Assembly (NCBI GenBank): GCA_043810775.1
Contig: JBDRNU010000015.1
Location: 52,555 to 116,554 of the forward strand
Reading direction: 5' to 3'
Source: an archaeon
Lineage (GTDB): Archaea > Nanobdellota > Nanobdellia > Pacearchaeales > GW2011-AR1
Length of the DNA stretch: 64,000 nucleotides
Shown here piece by piece: positions 20,010 to 52,523 of this stretch. The position numbers were made by a program, and so were the translations under genes. Position 1 is the first letter of the stretch; each line of letters begins with the position of its first letter. The notes beneath the pieces were generated by a model, which made no database searches, was not told where the DNA came from, and worked only from the letters and a program-made list of their open reading frames with translations.

Positions 20010-20040
20010 GGCCGGTGCAATACCATTATGCGACGCGGGC
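19948..20040 (-). tRNA. tRNA-Ser(UGA), intron-containing (class II, long variable arm)
   Basis: Manual fold gives a 7-bp acceptor stem (GCCCGCG/CGCGGGC) and a 3-bp D-stem. The anticodon stem CCGGC/GCCGG carries loop CUUGAG with anticodon UGA. A roughly 13-nt insert sits at the canonical 37/38 site (about 19992-20004). The variable arm is a hairpin (GCCC-UUU-GGGC) and the T-arm is CCAGG-UUCGAUU-CCUGG. Confidence 0.6.
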
Positions 20041-28727: not shown

Positions 28728-29825
28728 ATGGCAGAATTTATTAAAAGAGATGAAGCAGACATCAATCCTGAAGTTCTTGAAATTGACCGTGAATTAGAGG
28801 AACTTTTGAAAAAACAGAGCGCTAAAGTTAAAGTAGTAGGGGTAGGTGGTGGTGGTGGAAATACTTTATCAAGGATGAAAGAAATTGGAATAAAAGGTAG
28901 TGAACTTATAGCCATCAATACAGATGCTCAAGATTTATTGTATACTTCTGCAGATTATAAAATATTAATTGGTCGCGAATTAACAAGAGGGCTTGGAGCA
29001 GGATCTAATCCTAAAGTTGGAGAAGAAGCTGCCCGTGAATCTGAGCACGAAATCAAGAAAAGAATTTCAGGAGCCGATATGGTATTTATAACGTGTGGGC
29101 TTGGAGGGGGAACAGGAACTGGCGCGGCTCCGATAGTTGCTGAAGCAGCGAAAAAACAAGGAGCTCTTACTATAGGTATAGTAACTCTCCCTTTTACAAT
29201 TGAAGGAAGGAAAAGAATTGAAAATTCAGTATATGGTTTAGAAAGAATGGAGTCTGTTGTTGATACTTTAATAGTAATACCTAATGATAAATTACTTGAA
29301 CTTGCTCCTGAATTACCCCTCCATACTGCATTCAAAGTTGCAGATGAAATTTTAACTAATGCAGTAAAAGGAACAACTGAGCTAGTAACAAAAACAGGAC
29401 TTGTTAATCTGGATTTTGCAGATATAAAATCAGTAATGGTAGATGGTGGAGTTTCTCTTATTGGTATGGGGGAGGCTGATTCTCAGAATCGTGCAATTGA
29501 AGCAGTTGAGAAAGCTTTACAAAATCCTCTGTTGGATGTTGATGTAAGTAATGCTTCTGGAGCTTTAGTAAATATTATTGGGGGCCCTGATTTAAGCCTA
29601 GATGAATCTAAGAGTATAATAGAATTTGTAGGTAATAAATTGGGAGATGACGCAAAAATGATCTGGGGTGCACAAATTTCTGAAGATATGGAAAAATCAA
29701 TAAGAGTAATGTTAATAATAACTGGTGTAAAATCAAGTCAGATTCTTGGCAAAGGTGAAACTTCAGAAGAAAAGCGGCAAAAAGATATTGAAGAAGAGCT
29801 TGGGATTGAATTTTATGAAGAATAG
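28728..29825 (+). CDS. ftsZ: cell division GTPase FtsZ
   Basis: 365 aa; GVGGGGGNT and tubulin signature GLGGGTGTGAAP. Confidence 0.9.
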   Translation: MAEFIKRDEADINPEVLEIDRELEELLKKQSAKVKVVGVGGGGGNTLSRMKEIGIKGSELIAINTDAQDLLYTSADYKILIGRELTRGLGAGSNPKVGEEAARESEHEIKKRISGADMVFITCGLGGGTGTGAAPIVAEAAKKQGALTIGIVTLPFTIEGRKRIENSVYGLERMESVVDTLIVIPNDKLLELAPELPLHTAFKVADEILTNAVKGTTELVTKTGLVNLDFADIKSVMVDGGVSLIGMGEADSQNRAIEAVEKALQNPLLDVDVSNASGALVNIIGGPDLSLDESKSIIEFVGNKLGDDAKMIWGAQISEDMEKSIRVMLIITGVKSSQILGKGETSEEKRQKDIEEELGIEFYEE

Positions 29826-29855
29826 ATTTAAAAACCAAATTTCTTTATTTAGTTT

Positions 29856-30032
29856 ATGACAATTAAACAAAATTTAACATCATTTCTGGTGAAATGCAAA
29901 AGAGTGTGGCATATACTCAAAAAACCAGATAAAAAAGAATTTTCAACTATATTAAAAGTTTCAGCAATTGGCATTCTTGCAATTGGAATACTCGGCTTCA
30001 TAATAGCTATAATCATGAGTATATTTAATTAG
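29856..30032 (+). CDS. secE: protein translocase subunit SecE (Sec61 gamma)
   Basis: Not in the ORF track (58 aa). Translation is MTIKQNLTSFLVKCKRVWHILKKPDKKEFSTILKVSAIGILAIGILGFIIAIIMSIFN. Has a single C-terminal TM helix and sits in the conserved position between ftsZ and spt5. Confidence 0.7.
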   Translation: MTIKQNLTSFLVKCKRVWHILKKPDKKEFSTILKVSAIGILAIGILGFIIAIIMSIFN

Positions 30033-30393
30033 ATTTTTCAGCTTCTTCAATAGAAATTATATTATCTTCTTTTCCAGGTTGATATTTATCTAGGATTTTA
30101 GTTTTAACTTCATTAAATGCTTCTTCAATATCTACATTTAATTGATTAGCCAATCTGCATAATCCAAAAAACAAATCTCCAATTCCATCCCGAAATACTT
30201 CTTTATTCTCATAAACAATTTTAATCTTTTCTTCTTCTGATTTATATCTTAAATACTGACTCATCTCTATTAACTCTTCGTGTAAATGATCAAATTTATC
30301 AATATTTGGATTATCTTGCCATCCATTCCTATTAGCAAATGCTTTAACAAGCTCTTGTGCCTCTTTTATAGACTTAATATTCTTATTTTCCAT
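30025..30393 (-). CDS. MazG-like nucleotide pyrophosphohydrolase
   Basis: 122 aa; EExxE motif in HEELIEM, within an all-alpha MazG-like region. Confidence 0.5.
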   Translation of the reverse strand: MENKNIKSIKEAQELVKAFANRNGWQDNPNIDKFDHLHEELIEMSQYLRYKSEEEKIKIVYENKEVFRDGIGDLFFGLCRLANQLNVDIEEAFNEVKTKILDKYQPGKEDNIISIEEAEKSN

Positions 30394-30427
30394 AAATAAG
30401 CATCATTTACATAAATATAAATTTTTT

Positions 30428-30442
30428 GGAAAAATTTATAAA
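30428..30442 (+). promoter_or_regulatory. candidate BRE/TATA (ggaaaaaTTTATAAA) for the spt5-rpl11 transcript
   Basis: A purine-rich BRE-like stretch plus TTTATAAA lies about 120 nt upstream of the spt5 ATG. Confidence 0.3.
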
Positions 30443-30560
30443 CCCTCATTTTTTACTATTTATAACTACTTCTAATAATTAGGAGTCAGTTGGGCCAAGC
30501 AACTTCACAAGACTAAAATTAAGATAAATGATAAGTGAGGTTGCGAGTTGAGGATAAAAA

Positions 30561-31049
30561 ATGATTTATGTAATAAAAGTCACAACAAATAAAGAAGAAA
30601 AAGCAACTGAGATGATTATTGATAAAATCAAGAAAAAACAGTTACCAGTATATTCAGTTGCTCGCCCACATGGTTTAAGAGGTTATATTTTTTTAGAGGC
30701 ACCAGAAAGAGACGTTGCTGAAGAAGCTGCTTTTAATCTACCTTATGTCAAAGGAATTGTAGGCAAGACAGTTGAATATTCTGAAATTAAGAGTATGATT
30801 GAGCCTACAGTTGAACAGATAAATATTGAAAAAAATGATATTGTAGAAATAATAGGCGAACCTTTTAAAAAAGAAAAAGCAAAAGTTGTCAGAATAGACA
30901 AGCAAAAAGAAGAAGCCACAGTCACTTTATTAGGGGCAGCAATCCCAATTCCAGTTACAGTAAAACTAGATAATATTAAAGTTATAAGAAGAGAAGATAA
31001 AGACGATGAAGAAACTGATGAAAGTGAAGATGGGGGGAATCAAAAATGA
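30561..31049 (+). CDS. spt5: transcription elongation factor Spt5 (NusG family; NGN + KOW)
   Basis: 162 aa; located between secE and rpl11; a KOW-like segment is followed by an acidic tail. Confidence 0.7.
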   Translation: MIYVIKVTTNKEEKATEMIIDKIKKKQLPVYSVARPHGLRGYIFLEAPERDVAEEAAFNLPYVKGIVGKTVEYSEIKSMIEPTVEQINIEKNDIVEIIGEPFKKEKAKVVRIDKQKEEATVTLLGAAIPIPVTVKLDNIKVIRREDKDDEETDESEDGGNQK

Positions 31050-31717
31050 TTGTAAAATTACTTGTTGATGGTGGAGACATGAAACCTGGCCCAGTAATTG
31101 GTCAAAAATTAGGCCCATTAGGAATTAATATTAATCAAGTAATGCAAAAAGTAAATGAAGCTACTAAGGATTTTAAGGGAATGAAAGTTCCGGTTGATCT
31201 AGAAGTTAATCCCTCGAATAAACAGTTTGAAGTAAAAGTATATTCTCCTCCAGTAGCGGAATTACTAAAAAAAGAGCTTAAACTAGAAAAAGGTTCAGGA
31301 GCCAGAAAAAAATTTATTATAGGAAATCTTGCAATTGAGCAAATAGTTTCTGTTGCCAAAATAAAGTATCCTAACATGATTGTCTCTAGCTTTAAAGCAG
31401 CAGTAAAATCAGTGGTTGGAAGCTGCATATCTCTTGGAATACTAATTGAAAGTAAAGATCCACTTGAAGTAGAAAAGGAAATTGATCAAGGCATTTATGA
31501 TAAAGAAATCGACAAACAAGTTATTGAAGTTAGCGAGGAAAAAAAGAAGCAACTTGAGGACTTTTTTGAAGATATAAAGTCAAAGCAAGATGTAATATTA
31601 AAGAAAGAAGCTGAGGAGAAAGCAGTTGAAGAAGACAAAAAAGCTGAGGCTGCTAAAACAGCTCCTAAACTAGAAGAAAAGAAAATAGAACAGAAAAAGC
31701 CAGAAGCTAAGAAGTAA
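31046..31717 (+). CDS. rpl11: 50S ribosomal protein L11 with long Lys/Glu-rich C-terminal extension
   Basis: 223 aa; N-terminus MIVKLLVDGGDMKPGPVIGQKLGPLGINI. Confidence 0.85.
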   Translation: MIVKLLVDGGDMKPGPVIGQKLGPLGININQVMQKVNEATKDFKGMKVPVDLEVNPSNKQFEVKVYSPPVAELLKKELKLEKGSGARKKFIIGNLAIEQIVSVAKIKYPNMIVSSFKAAVKSVVGSCISLGILIESKDPLEVEKEIDQGIYDKEIDKQVIEVSEEKKKQLEDFFEDIKSKQDVILKKEAEEKAVEEDKKAEAAKTAPKLEEKKIEQKKPEAKK

Positions 31718-31748
31718 ATTTATAAACTCTCTCAGCACTTTTATTTAA

Positions 31749-31822
31749 GGGGCTGTGGGGTAGCTTGGTTAGCCTTCGAGCTTTGGGAGCTTGTGACCCC
31801 GGTTCAAATCCGGGCAGCCCCA
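31749..31822 (+). tRNA. tRNA-Pro(UGG)
   Basis: Manual fold gives acceptor GGGGCUG/CAGCCCC. The anticodon stem CGAGC/GCUUG carries loop UUUGGGA, with G37. The T-arm is CCCGG-UUCAAAU-CCGGG and the discriminator is A. Confidence 0.8.
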
Positions 31823-31865
31823 TTCTTATAAAAGGAAAGTATTGGAAAAATATAGGTTGTTTAAA

Positions 31866-32090
31866 ATGGCCACTAAAACAAAAAAAATCAAACATGCTGG
31901 AAGGTTTGGAGCAGGATATGGTAAGAGGGTAAGAAAGAAATTAATAGGGGTAGAGTCCAAACAAAGAATAAAACAAACCTGCCCTTTCTGTAGCAGGAAG
32001 CCCGCAAAAAGAACTTCAAAAGGAATATGGGAATGTAAAAAATGTGGAAAGAAATTTGCCCACAACACTTTTCACTTAGGTGACTCTTAA
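31866..32090 (+). CDS. rpl37ae: 50S ribosomal protein L37Ae
   Basis: CPFC...CKKC zinc ribbon. The likely start is Met at 31866 (MATKTKK...); the track ORF begins at 31842. Confidence 0.85.
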   Translation: MATKTKKIKHAGRFGAGYGKRVRKKLIGVESKQRIKQTCPFCSRKPAKRTSKGIWECKKCGKKFAHNTFHLGDS

Positions 32091-32131
32091 TTTTCAAATA
32101 AATTTATAAACACTAAATAATATATCTTAAA

Positions 32132-32269
32132 ATGGCTATATACAAATGCTTTCAATGTGGTAAACAAGTTTCACATAAGGTTCTTGAAAAAAGATTTGTT
32201 TGTGCTACTTGTGGTGGAAAGATTTTCTATAAACCAAGAAAGAATATAACTAAGATTAAAGCTATTTGA
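32132..32269 (+). CDS. rpoP: DNA-directed RNA polymerase subunit P (RpoP/Rpb12-like)
   Basis: Not in the ORF track (45 aa). Translation is MAIYKCFQCGKQVSHKVLEKRFVCATCGGKIFYKPRKNITKIKAI. Carries a CxxC...CxxC zinc ribbon and lies directly after L37Ae, as in many archaea. Confidence 0.65.
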   Translation: MAIYKCFQCGKQVSHKVLEKRFVCATCGGKIFYKPRKNITKIKAI

Positions 32270-32317
32270 TAAAATATCTTTAATAAGTTTAGCTAATAAA
32301 TTTTTATTATCAGACAA

Positions 32318-32656
32318 ATGAAACTAGACAAAGAAACATCTGAAAATTTGCAAGAATTGCAAGTATTAGAGCAAAATATGCAAGGATTTTTAATGCAAAA
32401 GCAGGCTTTTCAAATGGAACTTAATGAAACTGAGGCTGCTTTAGAAGAATTAAAGAAAGCTAAACCTAATGAGGTATATAGGATTCTTGGTCAAATAATG
32501 GTTAAAACTGAGAAAGATAAAGCAGAACAAGAGCTTGAAGACAAGAAAAACCTCCTTACCTTAAGATTAAAGTCAATAGAAAAGCAGGAAAAGTCAATTA
32601 AAGATAGAGTAGATTCTTTAAGAGAAAAAGTTACTAAGAAAATGAGTTCAAAGTAA
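32318..32656 (+). CDS. pfdB: prefoldin beta subunit
   Basis: 112 aa; two coiled-coils flanking a central hairpin. Confidence 0.6.
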   Translation: MKLDKETSENLQELQVLEQNMQGFLMQKQAFQMELNETEAALEELKKAKPNEVYRILGQIMVKTEKDKAEQELEDKKNLLTLRLKSIEKQEKSIKDRVDSLREKVTKKMSSK

Positions 32657-32710
32657 TATATTTGTTTCTTCACCAAAATCTTTATATACTCATGCATTGT
32701 TGGATTTATT

Positions 32711-33091
32711 ATGGTGATTAAAAGTATAAAAAGTGGTCTTTCTAATATATTTAGTAGAACTGATGATGAGCCAGAATATATTGAGATTGATTTAGGTCAA
32801 GAAGCTAAAAAAAATAAAGTAATTGTAAGACCTTTTGTTCTTAAGAGTTTTGAAGATGTGGGGCATATTCTAGAAGTTCTGCGTGAAGGATATACTATTG
32901 CAGTAATTGATATAAAACCACTAAAAACCAAAGATATAATTGAACTGAAAAGAGCAGTTACAAAAGTAAAGAAAACAGCAGATGCTTTGGAGGGTTCTGT
33001 AGCTGGTTTTGGGGAAAATATGCTAATAGTTACCCCTCAATTTGCAGAAATCTACAAGGGACAGGCTCTTCCTAGAATAGAGAAGATTTAA
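32711..33091 (+). CDS. sepF: SepF-like (DUF552) FtsZ-associated cell division protein
   Basis: 126 aa; pattern VIVRPFVLKSFEDVGHILEVLREGYTIAVIDIKPL...MLIVTPQ matches SepF. Confidence 0.5.
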   Translation: MVIKSIKSGLSNIFSRTDDEPEYIEIDLGQEAKKNKVIVRPFVLKSFEDVGHILEVLREGYTIAVIDIKPLKTKDIIELKRAVTKVKKTADALEGSVAGFGENMLIVTPQFAEIYKGQALPRIEKI

Positions 33092-33115: not shown

Positions 33116-33703
33116 ATGAAAGTACTATTTATTGAAGCTAAAAAAAAGTCTTTAGATGTAGATATAGACCTATCTAATCTACCTGCGAAAGTTCATATAG
33201 CTTATTCTATCCAATACAAAGACTTAGCTGAAAAAATCAAAAAAAAGCTGAAAAGTAGAGTTTCTGGCTTTTCTCAAGCTCTTGGATGCACAAAGCTAAA
33301 TGCTAAGCACGCTATATTATTAGTTGGAAGTGGCAAGTTCCATGCTATACAGCTTGCACTATCAACAAATAAACCAGTCTATATTCTTGAAGGCCCTAAA
33401 ATAACTAAACTAGATGATTTAGAAGTTGAAAAATTCAAAACCCAAGTAAAAACCCAAAAACTCAAGTTTTTAAGTGCTAGCCAGGTAGGAATACTAATTT
33501 CAACTAAACCAGGTCAGCAAAACTTAAAAAAGGCGCTAAATTTAGCTAAAAAACTAAAGAAAAAATCCTACTTATTTCTTTTTGATACTCTAAATAAAGC
33601 AGATTTAGATAATTTTCCACTATCTTCTTGGATAAATACAGCCTGTCCTGCTATTATTCTTGATTCTAATAAGATAATCAACGCTGAAGAAATACAAATA
33701 TAA
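33116..33703 (+). CDS. dph2: Dph2-like protein (diphthamide synthase family) lacking the N-terminal domain
   Basis: 195 aa; LGCTKL...LLVGSGKFHAIQLAL resembles Dph2 domain 2. C-terminal WINTACPAIILD resembles the Dph1/2 ACPR motif. Confidence 0.45.
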   Translation: MKVLFIEAKKKSLDVDIDLSNLPAKVHIAYSIQYKDLAEKIKKKLKSRVSGFSQALGCTKLNAKHAILLVGSGKFHAIQLALSTNKPVYILEGPKITKLDDLEVEKFKTQVKTQKLKFLSASQVGILISTKPGQQNLKKALNLAKKLKKKSYLFLFDTLNKADLDNFPLSSWINTACPAIILDSNKIINAEEIQI

Positions 33704-33768
33704 GTTAAAATCTATGTTCTATAACCGAAATCTTTATAAACCATCGTAACTCAAAAATCGTAACAAAA

Positions 33769-35397
33769 ATGAACAAAAAATTAAATTTTTTAGTGAGCAT
33801 TTTAGCAATTGTACTACTAGCGAACTTTGTAACTGCAGCAACTTCTTTTAGTATTTCACCAACAACTTTGACATTTACCAACTCTAATACACAGACATTT
33901 ACAATAACTAATACCAATTCTTCAGAATTGTTAAGTGTTATTTTATCTCCAAGCCCATTTACAATGACTGTAGATGGTCAGAGTGTAACATTTAGCTTTA
34001 CAGGAAATTTAACTGACATTAATTCAACAAGTACTATAACTATTGCTCCAGTCACACCTATAGATTTCTCTAGGTTAGACCTTGGAGACGCTTTTTCAAA
34101 GAATTTAGTTATTACTGATTCTAGTAATAGCTCAGAAAGCGTAACAGTTGCAGTACGAATTGAAGATAGCCAATTCTGCGAGTTCTCAGATAACGGGAAC
34201 CTAGAAATGCAAATTGATAGCATCAATGCAAAAGGATTTGCTGAAGAAGATGATGAGTGGTACCCACTTGACGAAATTGAAGTAGATATAGACCTCGATA
34301 ATAGGGGTAGTGAAGATATCAGAAATATTGAAATTGAATGGGTATTGCTAACTTCAGATGGTAAAGAAGTTATGGACGGAGACTTAGCTGACTTTAATCT
34401 TAAAGATGGAAACGATGATACAAAGACCTTCACCTTTAAAGTTGACCCAAATGACTTAGAAGAAGGTGTAGAAGACTATGTATTATATGTCAGGGCTACT
34501 GGAGAAGACAAGGAATTTGACAGTAATGAGACTTGTGTAAGTGATTCACAAGACGTTAAAATTGTCTTAGAAAGTGACTTTGTTGTAATTGATCAAGATA
34601 GCCTGGAAATGCCAGAATCTTTATCTTGCGGCGGAAATTTAATAATTTCTGCAGATGTCTGGAATATTGGTGAAGATGACCAAGATGAAGTCTCTGTAAG
34701 AATTTATAACAGTGAATTGGGAATTGATGAAATAGTTGAAGTAGGAGACATAGACGCATTTGACAAGGAACCACTTGACATATCAATTAAGTTGCCAGAT
34801 GACGCAGCTGCAAAATCTTACAACATTAAGTTTGATGTCTTAGACGAAGACGGCGATGTGTATGAAAATGACAACGATGATAAATCTTCATTTACAGTTT
34901 CTCTTACTTTAGGAAACTGTGGTGCAAGTATTGATCAAGGTCAGGGTGTTTCAATATCTGCAAGTCTTCAATCAGAAGCTAAAGCAGGCGAACAACTAGT
35001 AATAAAAGCTACTTTGAGAAACACAGGCGACGAAGATACAACTTATACAGTATTTGTTACAGGCAATGAAGACTGGAGTAATTTAGACAAGATTGAACCA
35101 CAGACACTTCAAATTAGTTCAGGTGAAAGCGAAACTGTTATGATCTACCTTGATGTAGATGATGACGTTACAGGCGAGCAGACATTCAAGTTAAAAGCTG
35201 TTTTTGGCTCAGAAACCAAAGAACAGACAGTTTCAGTTAACATTGAAGGCGCTGGCGCAGGAACAGGTGGAGCTTTGACAGGATTTTCTGTAGCAGACAA
35301 TATCAGAGAAAACTGGTTTATCTGGACAATTGTACTAGTGAACATAATACTGATAATTTTAATTATCGTAGTAGCTACAAGAATTGCTAAAGGCTAA
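33769..35397 (+). CDS. secreted acidic cell-surface protein with C-terminal TM anchor
   Basis: 542 aa; signal peptide plus Asp/Glu-rich beta-rich ectodomain. The C-terminus is NWFIWTIVLVNIILIILIIVVATRIAKG, a TM helix with a basic tail. Confidence 0.65.
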   Translation: MNKKLNFLVSILAIVLLANFVTAATSFSISPTTLTFTNSNTQTFTITNTNSSELLSVILSPSPFTMTVDGQSVTFSFTGNLTDINSTSTITIAPVTPIDFSRLDLGDAFSKNLVITDSSNSSESVTVAVRIEDSQFCEFSDNGNLEMQIDSINAKGFAEEDDEWYPLDEIEVDIDLDNRGSEDIRNIEIEWVLLTSDGKEVMDGDLADFNLKDGNDDTKTFTFKVDPNDLEEGVEDYVLYVRATGEDKEFDSNETCVSDSQDVKIVLESDFVVIDQDSLEMPESLSCGGNLIISADVWNIGEDDQDEVSVRIYNSELGIDEIVEVGDIDAFDKEPLDISIKLPDDAAAKSYNIKFDVLDEDGDVYENDNDDKSSFTVSLTLGNCGASIDQGQGVSISASLQSEAKAGEQLVIKATLRNTGDEDTTYTVFVTGNEDWSNLDKIEPQTLQISSGESETVMIYLDVDDDVTGEQTFKLKAVFGSETKEQTVSVNIEGAGAGTGGALTGFSVADNIRENWFIWTIVLVNIILIILIIVVATRIAKG

Positions 35398-35455
35398 AGT
35401 TATTTAAACTATCTTTTTCTTATTTTTTTAGTAAGTAAAGCCGTAGGTATGCAGT

Positions 35456-36025
35456 ATGAAAAAGAGGATATTTAATATATTTTTAAGATATGTTATTCTT
35501 GTTTTAGCTGGGTTGTCAAATTTCTACATCTTTTACCTTATTTTTACTCCCCTAACTATTTATCCTCTTTATTATCTGTTCAGTATATTCTTTGAAACTG
35601 AAATTTTGAAAAATGTTATTCTTGTAGGTAATTATGAAATCAAGATGGTAGAAGCTTGTATTGCAGGAGCAGCTTATTATTTACTTTTTGCACTAAATCT
35701 CTCAACTCCTATGAATCTTAAAAAAAGAGCTTATGCCTTATTATTCACTTTCTTTTCATTTTTTATTATAAATATACTTCGAGTTTTTATACTGACCTCT
35801 ATTCTTGTAACATATGATAAAGCTATTTTTGACTTTGTCCACCTGTTTTTTTGGTATGTTTTTAGTACACTAGTAGTTGTTTTCTTATGGATTTTGACAG
35901 TAAAAGCTTATGAAATAAAAGCTATTCCAGCTTATACTGATATAAAGTTTATCTGGGATTTAGGAAAAGAGTCTCGATTAAAAAAGAAACTAAAAAAGAG
36001 CAAAAAATCCAAGACTCGCAAGTAA
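35456..36025 (+). CDS. exosortase/archaeosortase-like polytopic membrane protein (minimal form)
   Basis: 189 aa, about 5 TM helices. Cys68 (EACIAGAAYY) lies inside a TM helix and Arg109 (NILRVFIL) is 41 residues downstream. That matches the Cys-to-Arg spacing recalled for archaeosortase ArtA. The gene lies adjacent to a protein with a C-terminal TM + basic tail. Confidence 0.4.
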   Translation: MKKRIFNIFLRYVILVLAGLSNFYIFYLIFTPLTIYPLYYLFSIFFETEILKNVILVGNYEIKMVEACIAGAAYYLLFALNLSTPMNLKKRAYALLFTFFSFFIINILRVFILTSILVTYDKAIFDFVHLFFWYVFSTLVVVFLWILTVKAYEIKAIPAYTDIKFIWDLGKESRLKKKLKKSKKSKTRK

Positions 36026-36476: not shown

Positions 36477-37172
36477 TTAAACTTCCAGCCCTTTTGAATG
36501 AGCTGCTGAAGCTATTATAAATCTTTCTATGATTTGAGTATTCTCACAATTAGATATACTTAGTTCATAGCAGTCTTCACTCACTCTCTTAATATTGCTG
36601 GTTTCTCCACTAGTTAAAATAATTACAGTGCTTCCTTTACTAAGCTTAACTCCTTTTTCATCAACTTCAAAAACCACACTTTTTCCCTCACAAGTAGCAT
36701 AATTTAATTCCTTTTCTTCTGCAAGAGTTTTATTAGTAACAGCAAACTCTGGCTCTATACCTGCTGCTCCTAAAAATTCAGAGAGCTGTGCAATTAATCT
36801 GAAGTTATCCCTGCACTCTTCAATACTTTGGTCAACTGAAATTAGGACAGTATGCTGGAATATTATTTCACCATCTACAGGTATATATTCTAAATCTCTT
36901 GGGTCATTTCTTAAATAAATATTATAATTAGCTATAACATTTCCAGTTAAATCTGACATTGGAGTTCTAGCGTGATAAAGTGGAAGATTATCAAACATTA
37001 TTTTTTCAAATTCCAAGCCTCCATAACTAAACTTTCTTGATTCTTTTACTATCAAAGCAGCCGAGAATATCCCTAAAATCATTACAGCCATGAAAATTCC
37101 TATAATTTTAATTTGCCTAGCTTGTTTTTCATTTGTTTTTTTATCAACTTTTGCTTCTTCTGTATTATTCAT
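36477..37172 (-). CDS. membrane-anchored extracytoplasmic protein
   Basis: 231 aa with a single N-terminal TM helix; lies in an operon downstream of the S-layer-like gene. Confidence 0.45.
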   Translation of the reverse strand: MNNTEEAKVDKKTNEKQARQIKIIGIFMAVMILGIFSAALIVKESRKFSYGGLEFEKIMFDNLPLYHARTPMSDLTGNVIANYNIYLRNDPRDLEYIPVDGEIIFQHTVLISVDQSIEECRDNFRLIAQLSEFLGAAGIEPEFAVTNKTLAEEKELNYATCEGKSVVFEVDEKGVKLSKGSTVIILTSGETSNIKRVSEDCYELSISNCENTQIIERFIIASAAHSKGLEV

Positions 37173-37173
37173 T

Positions 37174-37746
37174 TTAAACTCCTAAAACTTTGTAAATAAA
37201 TGCATCACTTGCTCTTAATATCTCTGAGCTCGGAGCATTTATAAGTATACAATTTTCTTCCTTGCTAATCTCAATATTTTCACTGTATTTAATAATTATT
37301 ATATTATCTGTACAGTTTTTATAAGGTAAATCCTCAGTGCAATTCTCAAAAAAGCAAACATCTTGTGTTTTATCTATAAAAAATTTCATATTCTGGTATA
37401 TTTCAGATTTGGCAAGGCTATTTTCTGATGCAAAATAAAGATTTTTTCCAGTGTAGCTTTCTAATCTTACTATAGGTATAGTAATATTTTCTGTTTCTTC
37501 AGGATTATATCTTGTATAAAATTCATTGTCATTTTTAGAAAAATACCAGTAGTTATTTTCTAACCTGAGGAACTCAACCCCATTTAAAGTCAGCTTATTA
37601 TCTGTATCCTCACTATCTTCTCCAGTATTATAAAAAGCATATCCTGCAGTGCTGATTATTAAGATAATAACCATAAAAATCCCCAAAGCTATTTTCTTTA
37701 TATTATCAGACTTTGCTTTTGAGTCCTTGGTCTCTATTTTTCTCAT
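37174..37746 (-). CDS. membrane-anchored extracytoplasmic protein
   Basis: 190 aa with a single N-terminal TM helix; 2-nt spacing to the next gene. Confidence 0.45.
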   Translation of the reverse strand: MRKIETKDSKAKSDNIKKIALGIFMVIILIISTAGYAFYNTGEDSEDTDNKLTLNGVEFLRLENNYWYFSKNDNEFYTRYNPEETENITIPIVRLESYTGKNLYFASENSLAKSEIYQNMKFFIDKTQDVCFFENCTEDLPYKNCTDNIIIIKYSENIEISKEENCILINAPSSEILRASDAFIYKVLGV

Positions 37747-37792
37747 TAAATACTGTAAAAATCAAAGTTTAAAATACTTACTACTAGACATC

Positions 37793-37827
37793 AAAAAAAA
37801 AGAAAAAGGAAAGAAAAAATAAAAAAA
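37793..37827 (-). terminator. oligo-T tract (archaeal intrinsic terminator candidate) after the S-layer-like gene
   Basis: A 35-nt A-rich run on the plus strand gives a T-rich run on the coding (minus) strand, starting 14 nt past the stop codon. Confidence 0.4.
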
Positions 37828-37840
37828 TTGGTTTTCAAGT

Positions 37841-40291
37841 CTAAGCTTCTGATGTAACTAAATCTGCAGATGTTGCAGAAGTACCCTTATATTTAGTACC
37901 TTCATCAGTTGTCACGGTTTGAGTTGTAACGTACTTAGCTGCATTTTGCGTATCTGCAGCCTCAAAACCAGCAACAAGCATTGCTACCTTATCAGCGTTG
38001 TAAGGTGATGCTGCTACTTCAATAAGGAATTCACCTGAAGCTACACCAGTTTCAGTTGTCCAAGCTTCTCCACATATTGCAGATTCACTACCAAGCATTT
38101 TTGCGGCTGCTGCGTTTACACAGCTTCCACCAATAACAATCAGGTTCTTGCCTGAAACCTGGCTTACTTCACTGTCTGAGACAGTTACTGAACCAAGCTC
38201 ACTTACTGAACCGCCAGTGCTTCCACTAGTTCCTCCACTAAGTGATGCTGATGGTGATGCTAAGAAAACGTCTGCATACGATTGACTTCCAGCATAAGTT
38301 AAAGTTAACTTGTACTGGTCTCCTGATTTATCCCATTCAGCTAAGGTAGATAAATCAGATATGACATGACCCATATGATTGTCAGTGTCATCATCTTCAA
38401 ACGTATTACCTCCAGACCACTCTGCTTGCACATTGCTTACATAAACTTTGTTGTCTGTTGTGTCATCAAATGTAACATTAATAAGGTCTCCCTTAGCAAT
38501 GTTTCCATCTTTGTCCTCTTCTTGTAAGCGTAGTGTATAAGTGTTAAATCCACAAGCTGCAGTACTCAACCATGCTCCTTTGTTAGTATCACTTGTATTA
38601 ATAGCTCCATATCCACAAGAAGAATTAGCTTGTGTAAATGGTAACCAAATTACTAATCCACCTGCAGTGTAAAGTTGATGAAAGCTTCCACCTCCACCGA
38701 CAGAAACATTTACCCATTTACTGTCCCCTAATTTTTCAATAGAGTTAACAGTTAAGACAACATTTCCTACATCACAAGTGTCACTTGCAGACAAGTCTGT
38801 ACATATATTCTGACCTGTAACTTGGTCCTTAATAGTAGTCTTGTTTGCATTGTCCTTTGTGGTTACAGTTGCAGATAACAAGTGAGATTCACCCTCAGTT
38901 GTAGAGTTCCATGAAACTACAAATTGTTCGTCATTATTAGTGATATTAAATAATATAGAATTGGCACTTGAAGTAACTAATTTGTTACTTGAGTCCTTTC
39001 CTATACCTCCAAAATCACCTGTAGAGTTTGCGTAAAGCAAATCTATTGTAGCATCACCACTCTTTATTGGAGCTCTTAATTGAAGATAGTCATTTGCACC
39101 TGCTTTAATACTAACTTCTTCTGCTGCTGGAATAAAAAATTCACCCATAGTGAACTTTACTGCTTCGAAACCAGGCATTGTAAGGTCAGTATCAGCTGCA
39201 ATAAACTCTTCTTCATCTAAAGTCCAAACTATAACTATTTTGTCAATAGTTTGTGCTCCTCCACTGGTTGATCCTCTGTCTATATAAGCTGTTAAGTCTT
39301 GGATGTCATCGTCATTTAGTTCAACTTTTTGGCCGTTTTCTAATATAAGCTTTCCAGCTCCTATTGAAAACTCAACTGAACTAATACCTGTATCTTTGGC
39401 ATTATACATAATGTCTTTGATACCCACATAACTACCATCTTTTAACTTGTAAGTTCCACCTTCAGCCATAGAATTTGTGGATTCTCCATCAACACTTAAC
39501 TTGACTTCTGTTGAACTAATAAACACTATCTGGACGTCATTATAAGTTTTACTGCCAGCAGTTACACTTATTGTTTCGCCCTCTGTTAGTTGTGCTGTAT
39601 TAGCTGAGTCAAGGAAGGTCAACTTTATATTTGAGTTATTAAGTGCTGTAAGGATATAGTAACTCTTACCAAACATCTCAATATCTGTAGTTTCAAAATC
39701 ATCTAAGTGAGTTGTAGTTACAGAAGTTGTTTGTGCATTGGTAATAAAGTCAAGTGTATAGTTAAGTATGTGTCTTCCTGATGCAATCTTCATACCTACA
39801 GTTGGTGTGTCTACTTTGTAGTCATCATCTGAAAAAAAGGACAAGTTTAGGTTTAGTCCTAGTTTTATTCTTTGTGTATATTTGTAGTCTGTATTGTCAT
39901 CATTGGTATAAGTTCCATCAGCTAAAAGTACTGGTAAATGTTCGTCACTCACTGTTGTAACAAATACATCTGCTACTGAGTCTCCCATATTAAGCCTATC
40001 GCTAGATCTGTCCAATCTGATAGAATCTCCACCAGATGCAACTACTCCACTAGCTGTGCTTCCGCCTTGAGCAGTTTGTGATGCTAGATGGAACTGTAAG
40101 TTCTGACCAACATCAACTGCAGCAGAAAGATCTGTTATAGCGGCAGTGGCTCCATGGACAATAGCGACATCAGCGCCTCCTCCTGATACAAAAGGGGCAG
40201 GGTAACTTGCAGCTGCTGCAATTCCAACAGTGCTTCCAAGCATTACTACGCTCGCTACTACTGATGCGACTTTCCTGAAATTAAATTTCAT
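37841..40291 (-). CDS. S-layer-like major surface (glyco)protein
   Basis: 816 aa. Signal peptide MKFNFRKVASVVASVVMLGSTVGIAAAAS; Thr/Ser/Gly/Asn-rich with many N-x-S/T sequons. There is no C-terminal TM helix. The gene has a strong GGAGG Shine-Dalgarno, visibly higher GC than its neighbours, and a long 5' leader. Confidence 0.6.
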   Translation of the reverse strand: MKFNFRKVASVVASVVMLGSTVGIAAAASYPAPFVSGGGADVAIVHGATAAITDLSAAVDVGQNLQFHLASQTAQGGSTASGVVASGGDSIRLDRSSDRLNMGDSVADVFVTTVSDEHLPVLLADGTYTNDDNTDYKYTQRIKLGLNLNLSFFSDDDYKVDTPTVGMKIASGRHILNYTLDFITNAQTTSVTTTHLDDFETTDIEMFGKSYYILTALNNSNIKLTFLDSANTAQLTEGETISVTAGSKTYNDVQIVFISSTEVKLSVDGESTNSMAEGGTYKLKDGSYVGIKDIMYNAKDTGISSVEFSIGAGKLILENGQKVELNDDDIQDLTAYIDRGSTSGGAQTIDKIVIVWTLDEEEFIAADTDLTMPGFEAVKFTMGEFFIPAAEEVSIKAGANDYLQLRAPIKSGDATIDLLYANSTGDFGGIGKDSSNKLVTSSANSILFNITNNDEQFVVSWNSTTEGESHLLSATVTTKDNANKTTIKDQVTGQNICTDLSASDTCDVGNVVLTVNSIEKLGDSKWVNVSVGGGGSFHQLYTAGGLVIWLPFTQANSSCGYGAINTSDTNKGAWLSTAACGFNTYTLRLQEEDKDGNIAKGDLINVTFDDTTDNKVYVSNVQAEWSGGNTFEDDDTDNHMGHVISDLSTLAEWDKSGDQYKLTLTYAGSQSYADVFLASPSASLSGGTSGSTGGSVSELGSVTVSDSEVSQVSGKNLIVIGGSCVNAAAAKMLGSESAICGEAWTTETGVASGEFLIEVAASPYNADKVAMLVAGFEAADTQNAAKYVTTQTVTTDEGTKYKGTSATSADLVTSEA

Positions 40292-43672: not shown

Positions 43673-46600
43673 CTACTCATTATATCCTCGGGCTATGATG
43701 CTGCATTCAGAAGGATTAGGCTGTTTTCCTGAAGTATCTCTACACTTTATATAATATGAGAAATCAGTATTCCACTCTGCATAGTGTTCAGTAGTATTTG
43801 AATAAGGCATTTGTATTCCTTCATTAAAATTAAAATTACAAGTACTAGTAGAGTATGAACAATCAGAATCTTCATCAGTAATAATCTTCAAGCAGCCAGC
43901 ATTTCCGCATATTTTGCTAGGTCCTGTATCTTGGTAAACTCTGACTACTGTAGGTGCTTCTCTGTCAACCTTAACTGTAAATTCAGTATCTGCAAAATCA
44001 GTATTTCCACCTAAATCAGTGCATTTAAAATAATAATGATAGTCTCCTTCCGGCAGGTCTTGTCTCTGTTGATGAGTATAATCCCTAGTATCAAAAAACA
44101 TTATCCAGTCTTTTTCTTGTCCAGTTGTGCTATAAAAGCAAAATGCATCTCCATCACAACAGCCATTGTCAGTTACAATTTCAAGATATACAGGGAAAAT
44201 ATCAGTTCCGCCTGAAATTGTTTCATTTGGCCCGTAGCTGAGTATATCTAGTGGTTGTGTTCCTAGCAAGGTAAATTCAAAGCTTTGCCTGTTTTCATTT
44301 CTGTCACCTTCAGGCTTTCCAGGCTGGTCTTTGCATCTAAAGTAAAATTTATTTTCAACCCTGTCTTGTATTCCAGTCAGAGTAGAAGAGCACTTATACA
44401 ATAAATTAGCACCCATTTCCCAGACTCTAGTTGAGCATGCAAAGGAATTTTCCATAACATCATAATCTTTGTTTTCTCTTGACCATTTGCATTCAGATGG
44501 TTCATTTACATAAAGTTCAAAATAAACCTGGCTAGTGTTGTAAGCAACTGGCATTCCGCTAATTATGCTTGTATTATAAATTACTGGAGGAGTTAAATCT
44601 GGTCCAGCTTCTACACAGAATCTTATTGCAAATTCATCATCATTTACATTTCCATTAGCGTCTTGGCATCTTGTATATAGTGTATAAGTTCCGTCTGGTT
44701 GTATAAGTGGATTTTCAGCTCCTTCCAATACACTTGCCCCCGGCAAGCTTAATCTTTGAGTATGATTATACAAGTATAAATTAGTTTCTCCAAAATAATA
44801 AGACATACTTTCAATATCTTTAGTGTGATTATAGTCAATCTTGCACTGAGCAGGTTCATTTGTCATTAATCCAAATGTTATTGGTGTAAATGCCTTTATA
44901 CAGCCGTCTCTAGTTTCTTGGCTTGTTATTTGCATTCCAATTGAAGGTGGTCTTGTATCTACATTAGTATAGCTATGGTCTAAGCTTAGTGCATCTTCCC
45001 ATGGAGTTATTGTTGGGCTATTTACATCATGAGGATTTATCCAGACACAGGACTCATTTCCAATGCTTCCTGCATTTAACAGTTCGCAAGCCTGCCCTAA
45101 TGACTTGCATCTATATTCTGAGCAAGGTCTAAATGGGTCGCCATTGCATTCCTCGCAATTATGCCCTCCTACTGGGGCTTCCCATGTCTCGCATGTAAAT
45201 ATTACCTTCTTTTGAGTTACCTCTTCATATAAAATTATAAAGACTATTATTCCTATTGCTATTCCTGCTATTGCTCCTCCTGCGCTTAACTGCCCTATTC
45301 CTAATCCTCCTTGTGACCACCCCCCACTACCAGCTAAAGGACTTGATAAAAGCCTCGCACTAAACCCGGCTGCAAATCCAGCTGCTCCTAATGCCTTGCT
45401 CATCTCTTCACTTGCCCCCATCATACTTGCCCCCATATAAAGCAGTCCTCCAACAAACATCCCCCATCCCAATGATGCTACAAGAACTCCTCCAGCGGTC
45501 CCTGGTTGTACTAAATTACCTAGTCCTCCACCTGTATTTGCTGGTGATGTTTGAGATGCAGGACCTGGTGTTGTTGAAGGTGCTGTAGTTACACTTCCTT
45601 CTGCGATAATTTTATTTTCCCCAAATGTCACTTTATCAGCAGTAATAGCTACTCCACCCCCATCAGCCCCTTTCACACCCCCTACCCCAAACACCAACCC
45701 AACCAATCCTCCCACCCCACCGCTCAACAACCTGACAGCAGGCAGGATAAAATCAGTCTTTATCTTTGAAATTTTCAAATCATAACCCTCATCATAGCCA
45801 TCCTCTCCCAAATAATTAACCTTGCCATCGCAGTCTCCCATGCTTGCACATAATTCCTTCATCTGATTCTGCCAGCTCTCATCAAGGCACTCACAATTTT
45901 TAGTGCAGTCTTCATCACTATAAATTTTCTTTTCAAATTCAACAACACAAACAGCACTAGCTTGCGAGCAAACTCCCTGAGCATCTCCTTTAGTGCTGTA
46001 AAAATCCAATCCAGGCGAATAACTTGGAACACAGCTCATATTTTTTCCTGCAATGCTTCCTATCCACTCGCAATCTCTTTTATCAGTATTTTCACAATCA
46101 TCTTGCTCACCCTGAAATATACAATCCTGCCACCTATTAGCAACACACCCAGCTTGTGAGAACAACCCATGGTCAGTTTCAATTCCGCCCTGCCAGCAAA
46201 CTTCTTGTCTAAAATCAGCGCACGGCTCTACAATCTCTTCATTAGAAATACAAATATGTCTCCACTCTCTAGCTCCAACAGCATTAGCATCTTCATCACC
46301 TACACTAGTCGCTGTACCATCATACATGCACCATGACTCTCCGTGATTAAAATCCTGCCCATTATAAGTTTTCTCGCAATCTAAATCTCTGCAAATGCTC
46401 TCTCCATAGCTAGGTCTAGTGCTATCTTGGCTTCTGTCATAAGCTCTGCAAATACTTCCATAAAAATAATCACAATTTCCGCATCCAGCAGAATTAGCAT
46501 TCGCACTTCCAGCTCCACAGCTCTCATCCTTGCTGTAAACTTTTTTCCAGTATAAGTCATCATTTATTTTGCTAGCATCATAAATATTAGCAGGATTTCC

Positions 46601-47323
46601 GCAAGTATCAATAAAATAAACCTCATCTAATCCAGAAACACAAATAGTCTCACTTGATTTCCCGCAATTAGTAGCAAGCTCTTCAGCTGAGCAAAGCCAG
46701 TCTTTATGAAAAGTAATATTTCCAGTAACAGTTCCTTCATCAGAACCAACTAAACCTTCATCACACTGCTGTCTAGTAACAAATTTGCAGCTCCGGATAT
46801 AATCTGTTTCATATACGCAAGCTCCCTTATCCTGGCTGTGAGCCATTTCAATACAAGCATCTTCATCCTGAACATTAGTTCTAAAATTAGTATTTAATCC
46901 ATAAAATGCGCTTATTCTTTTGCATCTAGTTAAAGTTACTAAAGCCGCCTCATTAGCAAGAATACAACAACCTAATTCACACTGTGCAATATTACAATCT
47001 TTTCCTTCAGACCAGGTGCCATTTTTTTCAATGCAAACTCTTTCAGGAGTATTTTCCATGCATAGTCCTTCCTTGCCATCATAACAGCATCCCTCTCTGC
47101 AAAAAGAAGTAGCATCACAGCTTGTAGGGCTACTCCTATAATTAGAATTGCAGCTTGCACTTTCAGAATTCTGGCACCAAGCTCCATAGCTTGTTTTTTC
47201 ACAGCATACACTAGTTTCTTGAGCGCTTACAACTGCAAAACCAGAACTTAATATATAAGCAATTGCAAAAATACTAATTACTAGTAAGCAAATTTCACTA
47301 ATTGAATAAAATTTCTTCATCAT
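43673..47323 (-). CDS. giant cysteine-rich membrane-spanning surface protein (paralog A)
   Basis: 1216 aa. Layout: signal peptide, Cys-rich N-domain with CC dyads, Gly-rich multi-TM core (GGVGGLVGLVFGVGG..., AGGAIAGIAIGIIVFIIL), conserved CETWEAPVGGHNCEECNGDPFRPCSEYRCKSLGQAC module, then a beta-rich C-terminal domain. Confidence 0.7.
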   Translation of the reverse strand: MMKKFYSISEICLLVISIFAIAYILSSGFAVVSAQETSVCCEKTSYGAWCQNSESASCNSNYRSSPTSCDATSFCREGCCYDGKEGLCMENTPERVCIEKNGTWSEGKDCNIAQCELGCCILANEAALVTLTRCKRISAFYGLNTNFRTNVQDEDACIEMAHSQDKGACVYETDYIRSCKFVTRQQCDEGLVGSDEGTVTGNITFHKDWLCSAEELATNCGKSSETICVSGLDEVYFIDTCGNPANIYDASKINDDLYWKKVYSKDESCGAGSANANSAGCGNCDYFYGSICRAYDRSQDSTRPSYGESICRDLDCEKTYNGQDFNHGESWCMYDGTATSVGDEDANAVGAREWRHICISNEEIVEPCADFRQEVCWQGGIETDHGLFSQAGCVANRWQDCIFQGEQDDCENTDKRDCEWIGSIAGKNMSCVPSYSPGLDFYSTKGDAQGVCSQASAVCVVEFEKKIYSDEDCTKNCECLDESWQNQMKELCASMGDCDGKVNYLGEDGYDEGYDLKISKIKTDFILPAVRLLSGGVGGLVGLVFGVGGVKGADGGGVAITADKVTFGENKIIAEGSVTTAPSTTPGPASQTSPANTGGGLGNLVQPGTAGGVLVASLGWGMFVGGLLYMGASMMGASEEMSKALGAAGFAAGFSARLLSSPLAGSGGWSQGGLGIGQLSAGGAIAGIAIGIIVFIILYEEVTQKKVIFTCETWEAPVGGHNCEECNGDPFRPCSEYRCKSLGQACELLNAGSIGNESCVWINPHDVNSPTITPWEDALSLDHSYTNVDTRPPSIGMQITSQETRDGCIKAFTPITFGLMTNEPAQCKIDYNHTKDIESMSYYFGETNLYLYNHTQRLSLPGASVLEGAENPLIQPDGTYTLYTRCQDANGNVNDDEFAIRFCVEAGPDLTPPVIYNTSIISGMPVAYNTSQVYFELYVNEPSECKWSRENKDYDVMENSFACSTRVWEMGANLLYKCSSTLTGIQDRVENKFYFRCKDQPGKPEGDRNENRQSFEFTLLGTQPLDILSYGPNETISGGTDIFPVYLEIVTDNGCCDGDAFCFYSTTGQEKDWIMFFDTRDYTHQQRQDLPEGDYHYYFKCTDLGGNTDFADTEFTVKVDREAPTVVRVYQDTGPSKICGNAGCLKIITDEDSDCSYSTSTCNFNFNEGIQMPYSNTTEHYAEWNTDFSYYIKCRDTSGKQPNPSECSIIARGYNE

Positions 47324-47324
47324 C

Positions 47325-48101
47325 TTATTTTATTGTACCAGTGCTATATCCTGGAGGCCAGCTCAAGCTTCTAGTGGCAAATATAAATTTTTCTTCTGTA
47401 ATTCTGTCAGTTAAAACATAAATCTTGCTTCCATCAGACTGCTTGTATTTTTCAACTTTCAAGTCAGGATAATATAACATATAAGTAAGAGGGTCAGAAT
47501 CTCCTAATCTAGCTTCATAGTTTAGTATTGATGTAGAAATCATAACTAAATCATATAATCCAGAGTCTAATGAAAATTTAATAGTTTCATAAGTATCACT
47601 TACACCCTCTCTTTTGTTTAGCACCATATTCATGTTAATATCAAATATAATCCTATCAGGAATAAATTCAACATTTAATTCATTATTTCCTAAAGCAACA
47701 ATATACCCCTGCTTCTCCATTTGCTTTTTCAAGCTTAAAGCACACTCTCTAGTTACTTGCTGAAGTTCAGCTTCCAGCTCCTCTTCAATATGCTGTTTAA
47801 GAAGTGGTTGCTGCATTGTGCAAGTATCATAATACTCATTAGTATAGCATAAATAATCAACATCATAACCCTCATACCAGATGCTATTTTCCGGAGAAAA
47901 ACTCCCACCTTTTTTAGTTAAAATATCTAGTTTATCTTCGGCAATATCTTCTACACAACCCTTCATATAAGCATTAGGTTCAGTTGGCCCAAATACTACT
48001 GATTCAATCCTAGGCCAGAATAAAACTATTAATACAGAAACTATAAGTATAGCTATAATTACAAATATGGTAATTTGCGCCCTCTTTTTTAAACTATGCA
48101 T
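47325..48101 (-). CDS. type IV pilin-like protein (class III signal peptide), partner of giant A
   Basis: 258 aa; MHSLKKRA|QITIFVIIAILIVSVLIVLF. Its stop lies 1 nt from the start of giant A. Paralog of 52524..53294. Confidence 0.55.
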   Translation of the reverse strand: MHSLKKRAQITIFVIIAILIVSVLIVLFWPRIESVVFGPTEPNAYMKGCVEDIAEDKLDILTKKGGSFSPENSIWYEGYDVDYLCYTNEYYDTCTMQQPLLKQHIEEELEAELQQVTRECALSLKKQMEKQGYIVALGNNELNVEFIPDRIIFDINMNMVLNKREGVSDTYETIKFSLDSGLYDLVMISTSILNYEARLGDSDPLTYMLYYPDLKVEKYKQSDGSKIYVLTDRITEEKFIFATRSLSWPPGYSTGTIK

Positions 48102-48190
48102 GTTTTTTCAACGCGAGCTATATTTATAAAGTTTATTAAAGCAAATAACTCAAGAATAAATTTAAATACTTCAGTTCAAAGTTCCTATTA

Positions 48191-48769
48191 ATGGATCAAT
48201 CAACAGAAACTGAAGTCAGAAATTTTGAACTATATAGTGCTCTTCAGGCAAGTCCTCACTCTAATCAAGGTCAGATTGATAGGGCATATAAAAGGCAAAT
48301 TGAATTTCTTCAAGCTAAGCTGGAAAATTATGAAATAACAAAGGTTAATTTAATTGCAAGAGCTGATAAAAGAGACCCAATTGACAGAGTTGAATTAATA
48401 GCTGAACTTGCACAAGCTCGTCTTGAAATTCAAAATTTTCATACAGCAGTTGAACAGGCTAATCATACTTTATCTAATCCTGTAAGGCGTGCAATATATG
48501 ATTGTACTGGAGAATATGATAAAATTTTTCCACATGAATGCAAACATAGAATATTTCAACCCCAAGAACAGCATGATATCCCTAACTTAAGAGAAATTCA
48601 GGAGCAAATTATGGCAGGAAAAATTAGACATGTTTTTTATTCAGGTCCAGAAGGAACTAGCATGGGTTTTGAAAGTTTTTTGAGTCAATCTCCTTTTTTA
48701 GATTTATCTTTTATGGAAAAAATATTATCTGAAAGAATGAAAAGAGGATTTAAAGATTTTTTTAATTAA
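48191..48769 (+). CDS. J-domain-like protein lacking HPD
   Basis: 192 aa; QIDRAYKRQIEFLQAKL and ANHTLSNPVRRAIYD resemble J-domain helices II and IV. No His-Pro-Asp motif is present. Confidence 0.35.
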   Translation: MDQSTETEVRNFELYSALQASPHSNQGQIDRAYKRQIEFLQAKLENYEITKVNLIARADKRDPIDRVELIAELAQARLEIQNFHTAVEQANHTLSNPVRRAIYDCTGEYDKIFPHECKHRIFQPQEQHDIPNLREIQEQIMAGKIRHVFYSGPEGTSMGFESFLSQSPFLDLSFMEKILSERMKRGFKDFFN

Positions 48770-52520: not shown

Positions 52521-52523
52521 TGT

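Follow-up and report, generated by a model that had tools for sequence, protein, structure and literature searches.

A pacearchaeosortase and its PACE-CTERM neighbour as a probable dedicated protein-sorting pair of a Pacearchaeota-type archaeon

A 64-kb window of archaeal DNA (GenBank assembly GCA_043810775.1, contig JBDRNU010000015.1, forward-strand positions 52,555 to 116,554; the window means this whole stretch, and all gene coordinates refer to it) was found to encode two proteins side by side on the forward strand: an acidic secreted protein of 542 amino acids (aa; 33769..35397) and a polytopic membrane protein of 189 aa (35456..36025). The 189-aa protein is a member of the exosortase/archaeosortase superfamily and of its curated pacearchaeosortase subfamily, and the 542-aa protein belongs to the PACE-CTERM family. 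We put at roughly 0.75 the probability that the two constitute a dedicated protein-sorting pair of a Pacearchaeota-type DPANN archaeon. An earlier reading of the DNA letters alone (the original prediction) had placed both open reading frames (ORFs) correctly and had proposed an archaeosortase-type protein with a cognate substrate; at the level of sequence, this proposal is supported by curated hidden Markov models (HMMs), invariant Cys, Arg and His residues, an in-silico alanine scan, conserved adjacency of the two genes and a tripartite tail on the substrate.

The system is already known at the database level, and the present result is a correct identification rather than a discovery. GenBank lists identical sequences under the names 'pacearchaeosortase' (MFH1307912.1) and 'putative S-layer protein' (MFH1307911.1), on a 160,888-bp contig of a metagenome-assembled genome, and NCBIfam has curated, lineage-named models for both; thus, the suggestion that sorting of this type had yet to be recognised in the lineage fails. 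The pair is that of models NF033505 and NF033506, from which it shows no family-level difference, and the way in which the two genes are paired and spread over DPANN archaea is that seen in 369 other species-level genomes.

Identification of the sortase

The 189-aa protein is hydrophobic and basic (pI 9.85). When compared to NCBIfam, it matched NF033505 'pacearchaeosortase' at 187 bits (cutoff 80; E 2.8e-55; model positions 2-163 of 167) and the superfamily signature TIGR04178 at 33.5 bits (cutoff 23; residues 65-147; model positions 4-91 of 97). These were the two matches above curated cutoffs among nine in all, every one of them to an exosortase/archaeosortase subfamily, with ArtE, XrtX, XrtH, heimdallarchaeosortase, XrtF, XrtM and ArtD making up the seven weaker ones. 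The 542-aa neighbour scored 428.7 bits against NF033506 'PACE-CTERM-PROT, putative S-layer protein' (cutoff 110; E 4.3e-128), and both NF033505 and NF033506 matched end to end. The searches with exosortase/archaeosortase HMMs proposed with the original prediction came out in its favor. Assignment to NF033505 also calls for a neighbour with at least 110 bits on NF033506 and for a Pacearchaeota/DPANN lineage; the neighbour was found here, with a single tail per locus, and the records of relatives were those of Pacearchaeota, Woesearchaeota, Nanoarchaeota or simply an archaeon.

By Pfam alone the enzyme would be missed, because Exosortase_EpsH (PF09721) scored 21 bits against a gathering threshold of 25.7. 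Neither the CPBP/CAAX family (PF02517; EExxxR and FxxxH motifs) nor any other family was detected in the 189-aa protein at E<=1 in Pfam. Classical sortase (PF04203) likewise gave no Pfam match; the 189-aa protein is helical and membrane-embedded, and the tail of its neighbour has no LPXTG.

Conserved residues and predicted fold of the sortase

Conservation was assessed in 38 database homologs of the sortase and, separately, in 76 sequences from species-level genomes. Cys68, the only Cys of the protein, lies in EACIAGAAYY and is followed 41 residues later by Arg109 in NILRVFIL, as had been read from the sequence originally. Twelve positions were invariant in the 38 database homologs (R11, Y12, C68, R91, N106, R109, H129, W133, Y134, W145, P158 and D162), and C68, N106, R109 and H129 were each found in 76/76 of the sequences from species-level genomes. 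Cys68 (codon at 35657..35659, + strand) is the predicted catalytic nucleophile, the N-I-L-R motif from Asn106 to Arg109 is encoded at 35771..35782 (+), and His129 (35840..35842, +) is the putative third member of a Cys/Arg/His triad. A nearly invariant triad of Cys, Arg and His has been described for the superfamily (Haft 2023, bioRxiv 10.1101/2023.06.07.544157), a description that His129 as third conserved residue fits.

Single residues were also mutated to alanine in silico and the variants scored anew with the curated HMMs. With TIGR04178, on which the wild type has 33.5 bits, R109A fell to 24.5 bits (-9.0), N106A to 25.1 (-8.4) and H129A to 25.6 (-7.9). The C68A variant retained 30.7 bits against this model, where the local alignment discards the segment; its losses on the ArtE and heimdallarchaeosortase models were 5.6 and 5.9 bits, respectively. 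Control substitutions had little effect (W133A, 0; W145A, -0.8; V118A, +0.9). These losses place C68, N106, R109 and H129 in superfamily-conserved columns and mark the Trp residues as subfamily-specific.

The AlphaFold2 (AF2) model of the sortase (mean predicted local distance difference test score, pLDDT, 87.2; predicted template-modelling score, pTM, 0.76) was all-helical save for one short beta-hairpin loop, with helices at residues 2-21, 23-45, 66-83, 88-119 and 122-151.

The PACE-CTERM protein and its C-terminal signal

The 542-aa protein was confirmed to be an acidic secreted protein with a tripartite C-terminus, as originally predicted. It has a pI of 4.05 and 104 Asp plus Glu residues versus 31 Lys plus Arg; its only hydrophobic stretches are at residues 5-28 and 514-542, and it ends in ...NWFIWTIVLVNIILIILIIVVATRIAKG. 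Pfam CARDB matched at 29.6 bits. The AF2 model (pLDDT 85.5) comprised four immunoglobulin (Ig)-like beta-sandwich domains at residues 26-132, 145-265, 272-381 and 394-493, a disordered linker at 497-515, over which pLDDT was below 50, and a terminal helix at 516-541; matches of the model in the Protein Data Bank (PDB) were generic arrays of Ig or macroglobulin domains. An N-terminal Sec-type signal peptide is predicted for residues 1-24 (33769..33840, +) from the hydrophobic window at 5-28, a model helix at 6-18 and A23, which was invariant in 38 homologs; it is probably cleaved after VTA, a site that we infer.

The predicted sorting signal occupies residues 515-542 (35311..35394, +) and consists of N-W-F-I-W-T-I-V-L-V-N, a transmembrane (TM) helix and the basic tail T-R-I-A-K-G. 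It directly follows a Gly-rich disordered linker (residues 497-514; 35257..35310, +), delimited by pLDDT and conservation, which carries a semi-conserved [IL]-T-G motif (L503-T504-G505). The linker was the least conserved part of the protein (majority fraction 0.30) and the tail the best conserved (0.66). The consensus of 77 aligned tails begins with the semi-conserved [IL]-T-G, continues through a variable spacer and reads N-W-[YF]-[LI]-W-G-I-G-x-L-N-[VI]-I-L...I-I-x-V-A-[VI]-[RK]-x-A-[RK]-[KR]. Column counts in the same alignment were 52 for T and 63 for G of the linker motif, 57 for N, 69 for W, 70 for the intramembrane N and 75 for R/K; N515, W519, N525 and L528 were nearly invariant and I532 invariant. 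Conserved residues inside the TM helix of a target are expected where recognition is by an intramembrane enzyme (Haft 2023, bioRxiv 10.1101/2023.06.07.544157), and the polar Asn conserved within the helix in 70/77 tails fits this argument.

When an HMM of the tail alone was applied to the ORFs of the window, a single match was found (2.9e-18; next best 0.064), and each related locus likewise contained exactly one tail. A search of 5.8 billion proteins with a profile restricted to the tail gave 20 matches, all of them 47-79-aa C-terminal fragments of the PACE-CTERM family, a result that is weak evidence against other substrates because the candidate step of this search favoured short proteins. 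Single tails per window and per locus, together with fragments as the only database matches, fit the criteria given by Haft for a 'dedicated system'. Since no segment of the substrate is better conserved than the tail, and each locus has just one, a dedicated one-to-one relation of enzyme and substrate is indicated.

Distribution and gene order

A word-indexed search yielded 251 sortase homologs at E<=1e-3, and 369 sortase loci were confirmed by tblastn among species-representative genomes. Among 1.84 billion representatives, sortases formed 159 clusters (50% identity) at E<=1e-30, 350 at 1e-10 and 691 at 1e-3. The system is thus widespread in DPANN archaea and is not covered by reviews of archaeosortases, which still describe these enzymes as present in a subset of Euryarchaeota.

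Synteny was counted over 80 related DPANN loci. The substrate gene was immediately 5' of the sortase gene on the same strand in 75/80, and most of the remaining loci are cut at that point. The pair (SUB, SRT) is part of a region of about 12 kb that was collinear over the 80 loci, in the order Spt5> L11> Pfd> SepF> [Dph2>] SUB> SRT> [Sme<] p231< p190< SL816< p118> p184< p175<.

Other observations were made on the surroundings of the pair in this window and in its relatives. FtsZ and SepF are encoded just 5' of the pair (28728..33091, +), with SepF collinear with it in 53/80 loci. In Haloferax volcanii, ArtA, the S-layer glycoprotein and FtsZ1 co-localise at midcell (PMC7157517); the proximity of FtsZ and SepF recalls this arrangement, yet it may be mere conserved gene order. 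A Dph2-like ORF of 195 aa (33116..33703, +), covering model positions 72-280 of 308 and N-terminally short compared to canonical Dph2, was found in 23/80 otherwise collinear loci. An archaeal block of Spt5, L11, SepF, PACE-CTERM and sortase genes was also found filed under metagenome-assembled genomes of 'Vicingus sp.' and 'Omnitrophota bacterium' (loci L032, CAYRAD010000265.1, and L061, DATJPO010000052.1), most likely by binning contamination. In a further 64-kb locus (L081; ENA ERZ25039527, contig_112472), the same syntenic region was split into dozens of gene calls of 30-100 aa and looks like a frameshift-rich assembly. Fragmented gene calls of this type account for the short 'tail-only' entries of the protein database.

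Comparison with ArtA and other sortase systems

ArtA of H. volcanii (HVO_0915), like the 189-aa protein, is polytopic, and mutagenesis has shown that it needs C173, R214 and R253 (PMC9263693). The Cys-to-Arg spacing of 41 residues noted in the original prediction was found to equal that of C173 and R214 exactly, and the position of the Cys at 173 in ArtA versus 68 here is consistent with about 100 fewer N-terminal residues in the pacearchaeosortase. Of the Cys/Arg/Arg set that was to be sought in an alignment with ArtA, Cys68 and Arg109 were invariant, whereas the second Arg (R253) had no clear counterpart: at about 39 residues beyond R109 the homologs have no invariant Arg (K150 varies among them), and the third residue here is His129. 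No ArtA model was among the HMM matches of the 189-aa protein at E<=10. In both systems the substrates have a C-terminal signal of three parts, with the signature directly next to the TM helix, and include an S-layer-type protein. The signatures differ, however (PGF for ArtA and N-W-[YF]-[LI]-W...N here), as does the number of substrates: ArtA has nine of them in H. volcanii and as many as 52 elsewhere, compared to one here.

The original prediction described the sortase as very small, yet its size was not exceptional among curated models. It shares the small size class (150-168 model positions) and the TM3-TM5 core with ArtE (TIGR04124), ArtD, XrtH, XrtM and XrtX, and the models of ArtE (153 positions), ArtD (150), XrtM (150) and XrtH (158) do not exceed it in length. 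ArtE was the best-scoring sister model, at 26.3 bits over residues 8-150; because its cutoff is 95 bits, the pacearchaeosortase is set apart as a separate subfamily, which differs in signal and lineage too. The JDVT-CTERM/MrtJ system (Haft 2023) resembles the present pair in having a single target per genome beside its enzyme and conserved residues within the target TM helix. By contrast, MrtJ is a CPBP/Rce1-type glutamic protease that acts on a Cys-containing signal, whereas here it is the enzyme, an archaeosortase, that relies on a Cys, and the signal lacks one.

Proposed sorting reaction and alternative explanations

By analogy with ArtA of H. volcanii, the 542-aa substrate would be exported through Sec and would stay for a time in the membrane by way of its C-terminal helix, the basic tail lying in the cytoplasm. 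The sortase would then recognise the N-W-[YF]-[LI]-W...N signature at the outer-leaflet boundary, and Cys68, helped by Arg109 and His129, would cleave at or near the signature via a thioacyl intermediate. An amine acceptor, most probably the head group of a membrane lipid, would take over the new C-terminus, which would leave the protein anchored to lipid at the cell surface as an S-layer or stalk protein. Endopeptidase/transpeptidase-type activity on the signal has been shown in the superfamily for ArtA only (PMC9263693; PMC7157517), in which lipid attachment is coupled to cleavage, a step that in turn needs PssA/PssD (PMC7157517).

Several observations weigh against a dedicated sorting pair. 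Because the whole region from Spt5 to p175 is collinear, adjacency of the two genes is not specific evidence of a functional link. The charge distribution puts C68, R109 and H129 toward the outer face by the positive-inside rule only, with the orientation of residues 1-45 ambiguous. Foldseek gave no PDB fold match for the sortase model, Rce1 included, and the fold has no solved structure. A PssA/PssD-type lipid head-group enzyme was not found within the 64-kb window, which cannot speak for the whole genome. A literature search found no publication naming the pacearchaeosortase/PACE-CTERM system and no experiment on any member. In addition, five substrate homologs (loci L012, L022, L032, L061 and L080) were found to be without the W...W...N signature and to keep the TM helix and basic tail (...IV[KR]AS[KR]K); only two of the five are closely related, and the signature was lost at least four times independently. 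The sortases beside these motif-less tails keep every conserved residue. No column of the enzyme discriminated the five loci (0 columns, compared to an average of 0.08 for random subsets of five), and their sortases did not cluster by identity (0.563 versus 0.550 and 0.559). The signature may not be the recognition determinant, these five proteins may no longer be processed, or the enzyme may have another role.

An alternative that we consider unlikely keeps the cleavage of the helix by the sortase and has water resolve the acyl-enzyme, so that the Ig protein would be released, or held by protein-protein contacts (e.g., with an S_layer_C protein), rather than lipid-anchored. The lack of a PssA/PssD-like gene in the window counts for such a release, although 64 kb cannot prove the genome-wide absence of lipid genes, and a conserved S_layer_C protein that is itself unanchored has its gene close by. 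Lipid biosynthesis is usually missing from DPANN archaea, which counts in the same direction. Whether archaeosortases are one-step transpeptidases is also unsettled, even for ArtA (Haft 2023, bioRxiv 10.1101/2023.06.07.544157). Against hydrolytic release stand the coupling of cleavage to lipid attachment in ArtA, the only studied relative (PMC7157517), and a Cys/Arg/His triad like that of transpeptidating sortases (Haft 2023).

It is very improbable that the C-terminal helix is instead a permanent TM anchor, with the sortase acting elsewhere or on nothing and the two genes adjacent only as part of a collinear housekeeping and envelope region. The synteny does take in Spt5, L11, prefoldin and SepF, five lineages lost the signature and kept the TM helix and basic tail, and the sortases do not co-vary with the motif-less tails. 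A permanent anchor, however, would not require the N-W-Y-L-W-G-I-G-x-L-N signature, whose conservation exceeds that of the folded domains. The tail is carried by no other protein in the window, in the related loci or in the tail-only database search, and NCBI curators independently paired the two families. Moreover, the invariance of the catalytic triad in 76/76 genomes argues that the enzyme is under selection for activity.

That the 189-aa protein is a CPBP/CAAX-type protease or an unrelated polytopic membrane protein, the outcome named at the outset as fatal to the original prediction, has next to no probability left: apart from the sub-threshold Exosortase_EpsH score in its favor, this identity is effectively refuted by Pfam (no CPBP or other family at E<=1), by NCBIfam (all nine matches exosortase/archaeosortase), by the invariant Cys, Arg and His in superfamily-conserved columns and by Foldseek (neither Rce1 nor another PDB fold).

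A dedicated pacearchaeosortase/PACE-CTERM pair, which joins an archaeosortase of the smallest kind to one substrate encoded beside it, is a convenient minimal system for the one-step transpeptidase question and is also suited to a first structure of a fold without a PDB relative.

The neighbouring operon

A conserved operon convergent to the pair (36477..40291, - strand; Pfam and 80-locus synteny) encodes an 816-aa S_layer_C protein followed by N-terminally anchored proteins of 190 and 231 aa, all three labelled 'hypothetical' in GenBank. The 816-aa protein is secreted, matches Pfam S_layer_C at 25.3 bits (cutoff 23.9), has a conserved GGSC.N...C near residues 721-740 and is without a C-terminal anchor; the 190-aa and 231-aa proteins have four conserved Cys each. 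The three genes were found beside the sortase in 57, 69 and 72 of the 80 loci, respectively. Their products could be lattice and assembly partners of the PACE-CTERM protein in the same envelope system. The 190-aa and 231-aa proteins were considered as paralogs and rejected as such (E=0.036, with similarity confined to the N-terminal anchor region).

A broader model, which we offer as speculative and rather unlikely, would make the sortase pair half of an envelope locus conserved in DPANN archaea (SUB> SRT> <p231 <p190 <SL816) that builds a two-component surface layer. The components would be a sortase-processed, lipid-anchored Ig stalk and an unanchored S_layer_C lattice protein, the Cys-rich anchored proteins would serve as assembly or acceptor factors, and the anchor lipid would be host-derived, as the organism probably cannot make its own lipids. 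If such a layer is built, the repeated loss of the signature beside an unchanged enzyme would mean that recognition is via features of the TM helix and not via the signature.

Genomic setting and other loci in the window

The markers of the window are archaeal and its GC content is about 31%, which together indicate a small-genome archaeon. Genes around the pair include Spt5, L11, tRNA-Pro, L37Ae, prefoldin beta, SepF, FtsZ, SecY, PCNA and a ribosomal-protein cluster. An archaeal TATA-box-like element, TTTATAAA, was read at 33733..33740 (+), about 33 nucleotides (nt) 5' of the ATG of the PACE-CTERM gene, and may be its promoter element. The 58-bp spacer between the PACE-CTERM and sortase genes (35398..35455, +) contains a TATA-like TTTAAA at 35403-35408, a T-rich run at 35414-35429 and an AGGT 7 nt ahead of the sortase ATG. 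A promoter and terminator scan gave counts at the level of shuffled sequence, with bacterial models whose output has no meaning for archaeal DNA. At its Lys-rich 3' end, the sortase gene shares 36 bp (35990..36025) with the 3' end of a convergent Sm_multidrug_ex (PF06695) gene, which was found at this site in just 29/80 loci. Codon adaptation relative to the ribosomal-protein genes of the window, used as a gauge of S-layer-level expression of the substrate, was uninformative (range 0.60-0.72 only); both large surface proteins were lowest in this range, probably owing to their higher GC content.

Farther from the pair, a two-gene module was found to be duplicated in tandem (43673..53294, -), each copy encoding an N-anchored protein of about 257 aa and a Cys-rich giant protein of about 1,230 aa. 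The copies of the former (47325..48101 and 52524..53294) were 32% identical (E 4e-36), and those of the latter (43673..47323 and 48762..52520) 33% identical end to end. The giant proteins combine a signal peptide with a Gly-rich multi-TM region in the middle and Ig-like domains at the C-terminus. The module is essentially without Pfam annotation, has a GC content of 0.36-0.40 compared to a background of about 0.30 and was not found in the flanks of the 80 related loci. A 93-nt tRNA at 19948..20040 (-), detected by Rfam at 48.1 bits and missed by ARAGORN, is probably an intron-containing archaeal tRNA. At 54174..56197 (+), a weakly primase-small-subunit-like ORF of 417 aa (24.4 bits, short of the cutoff) precedes the gene of a 261-aa Cas4/PD-(D/E)XK nuclease.

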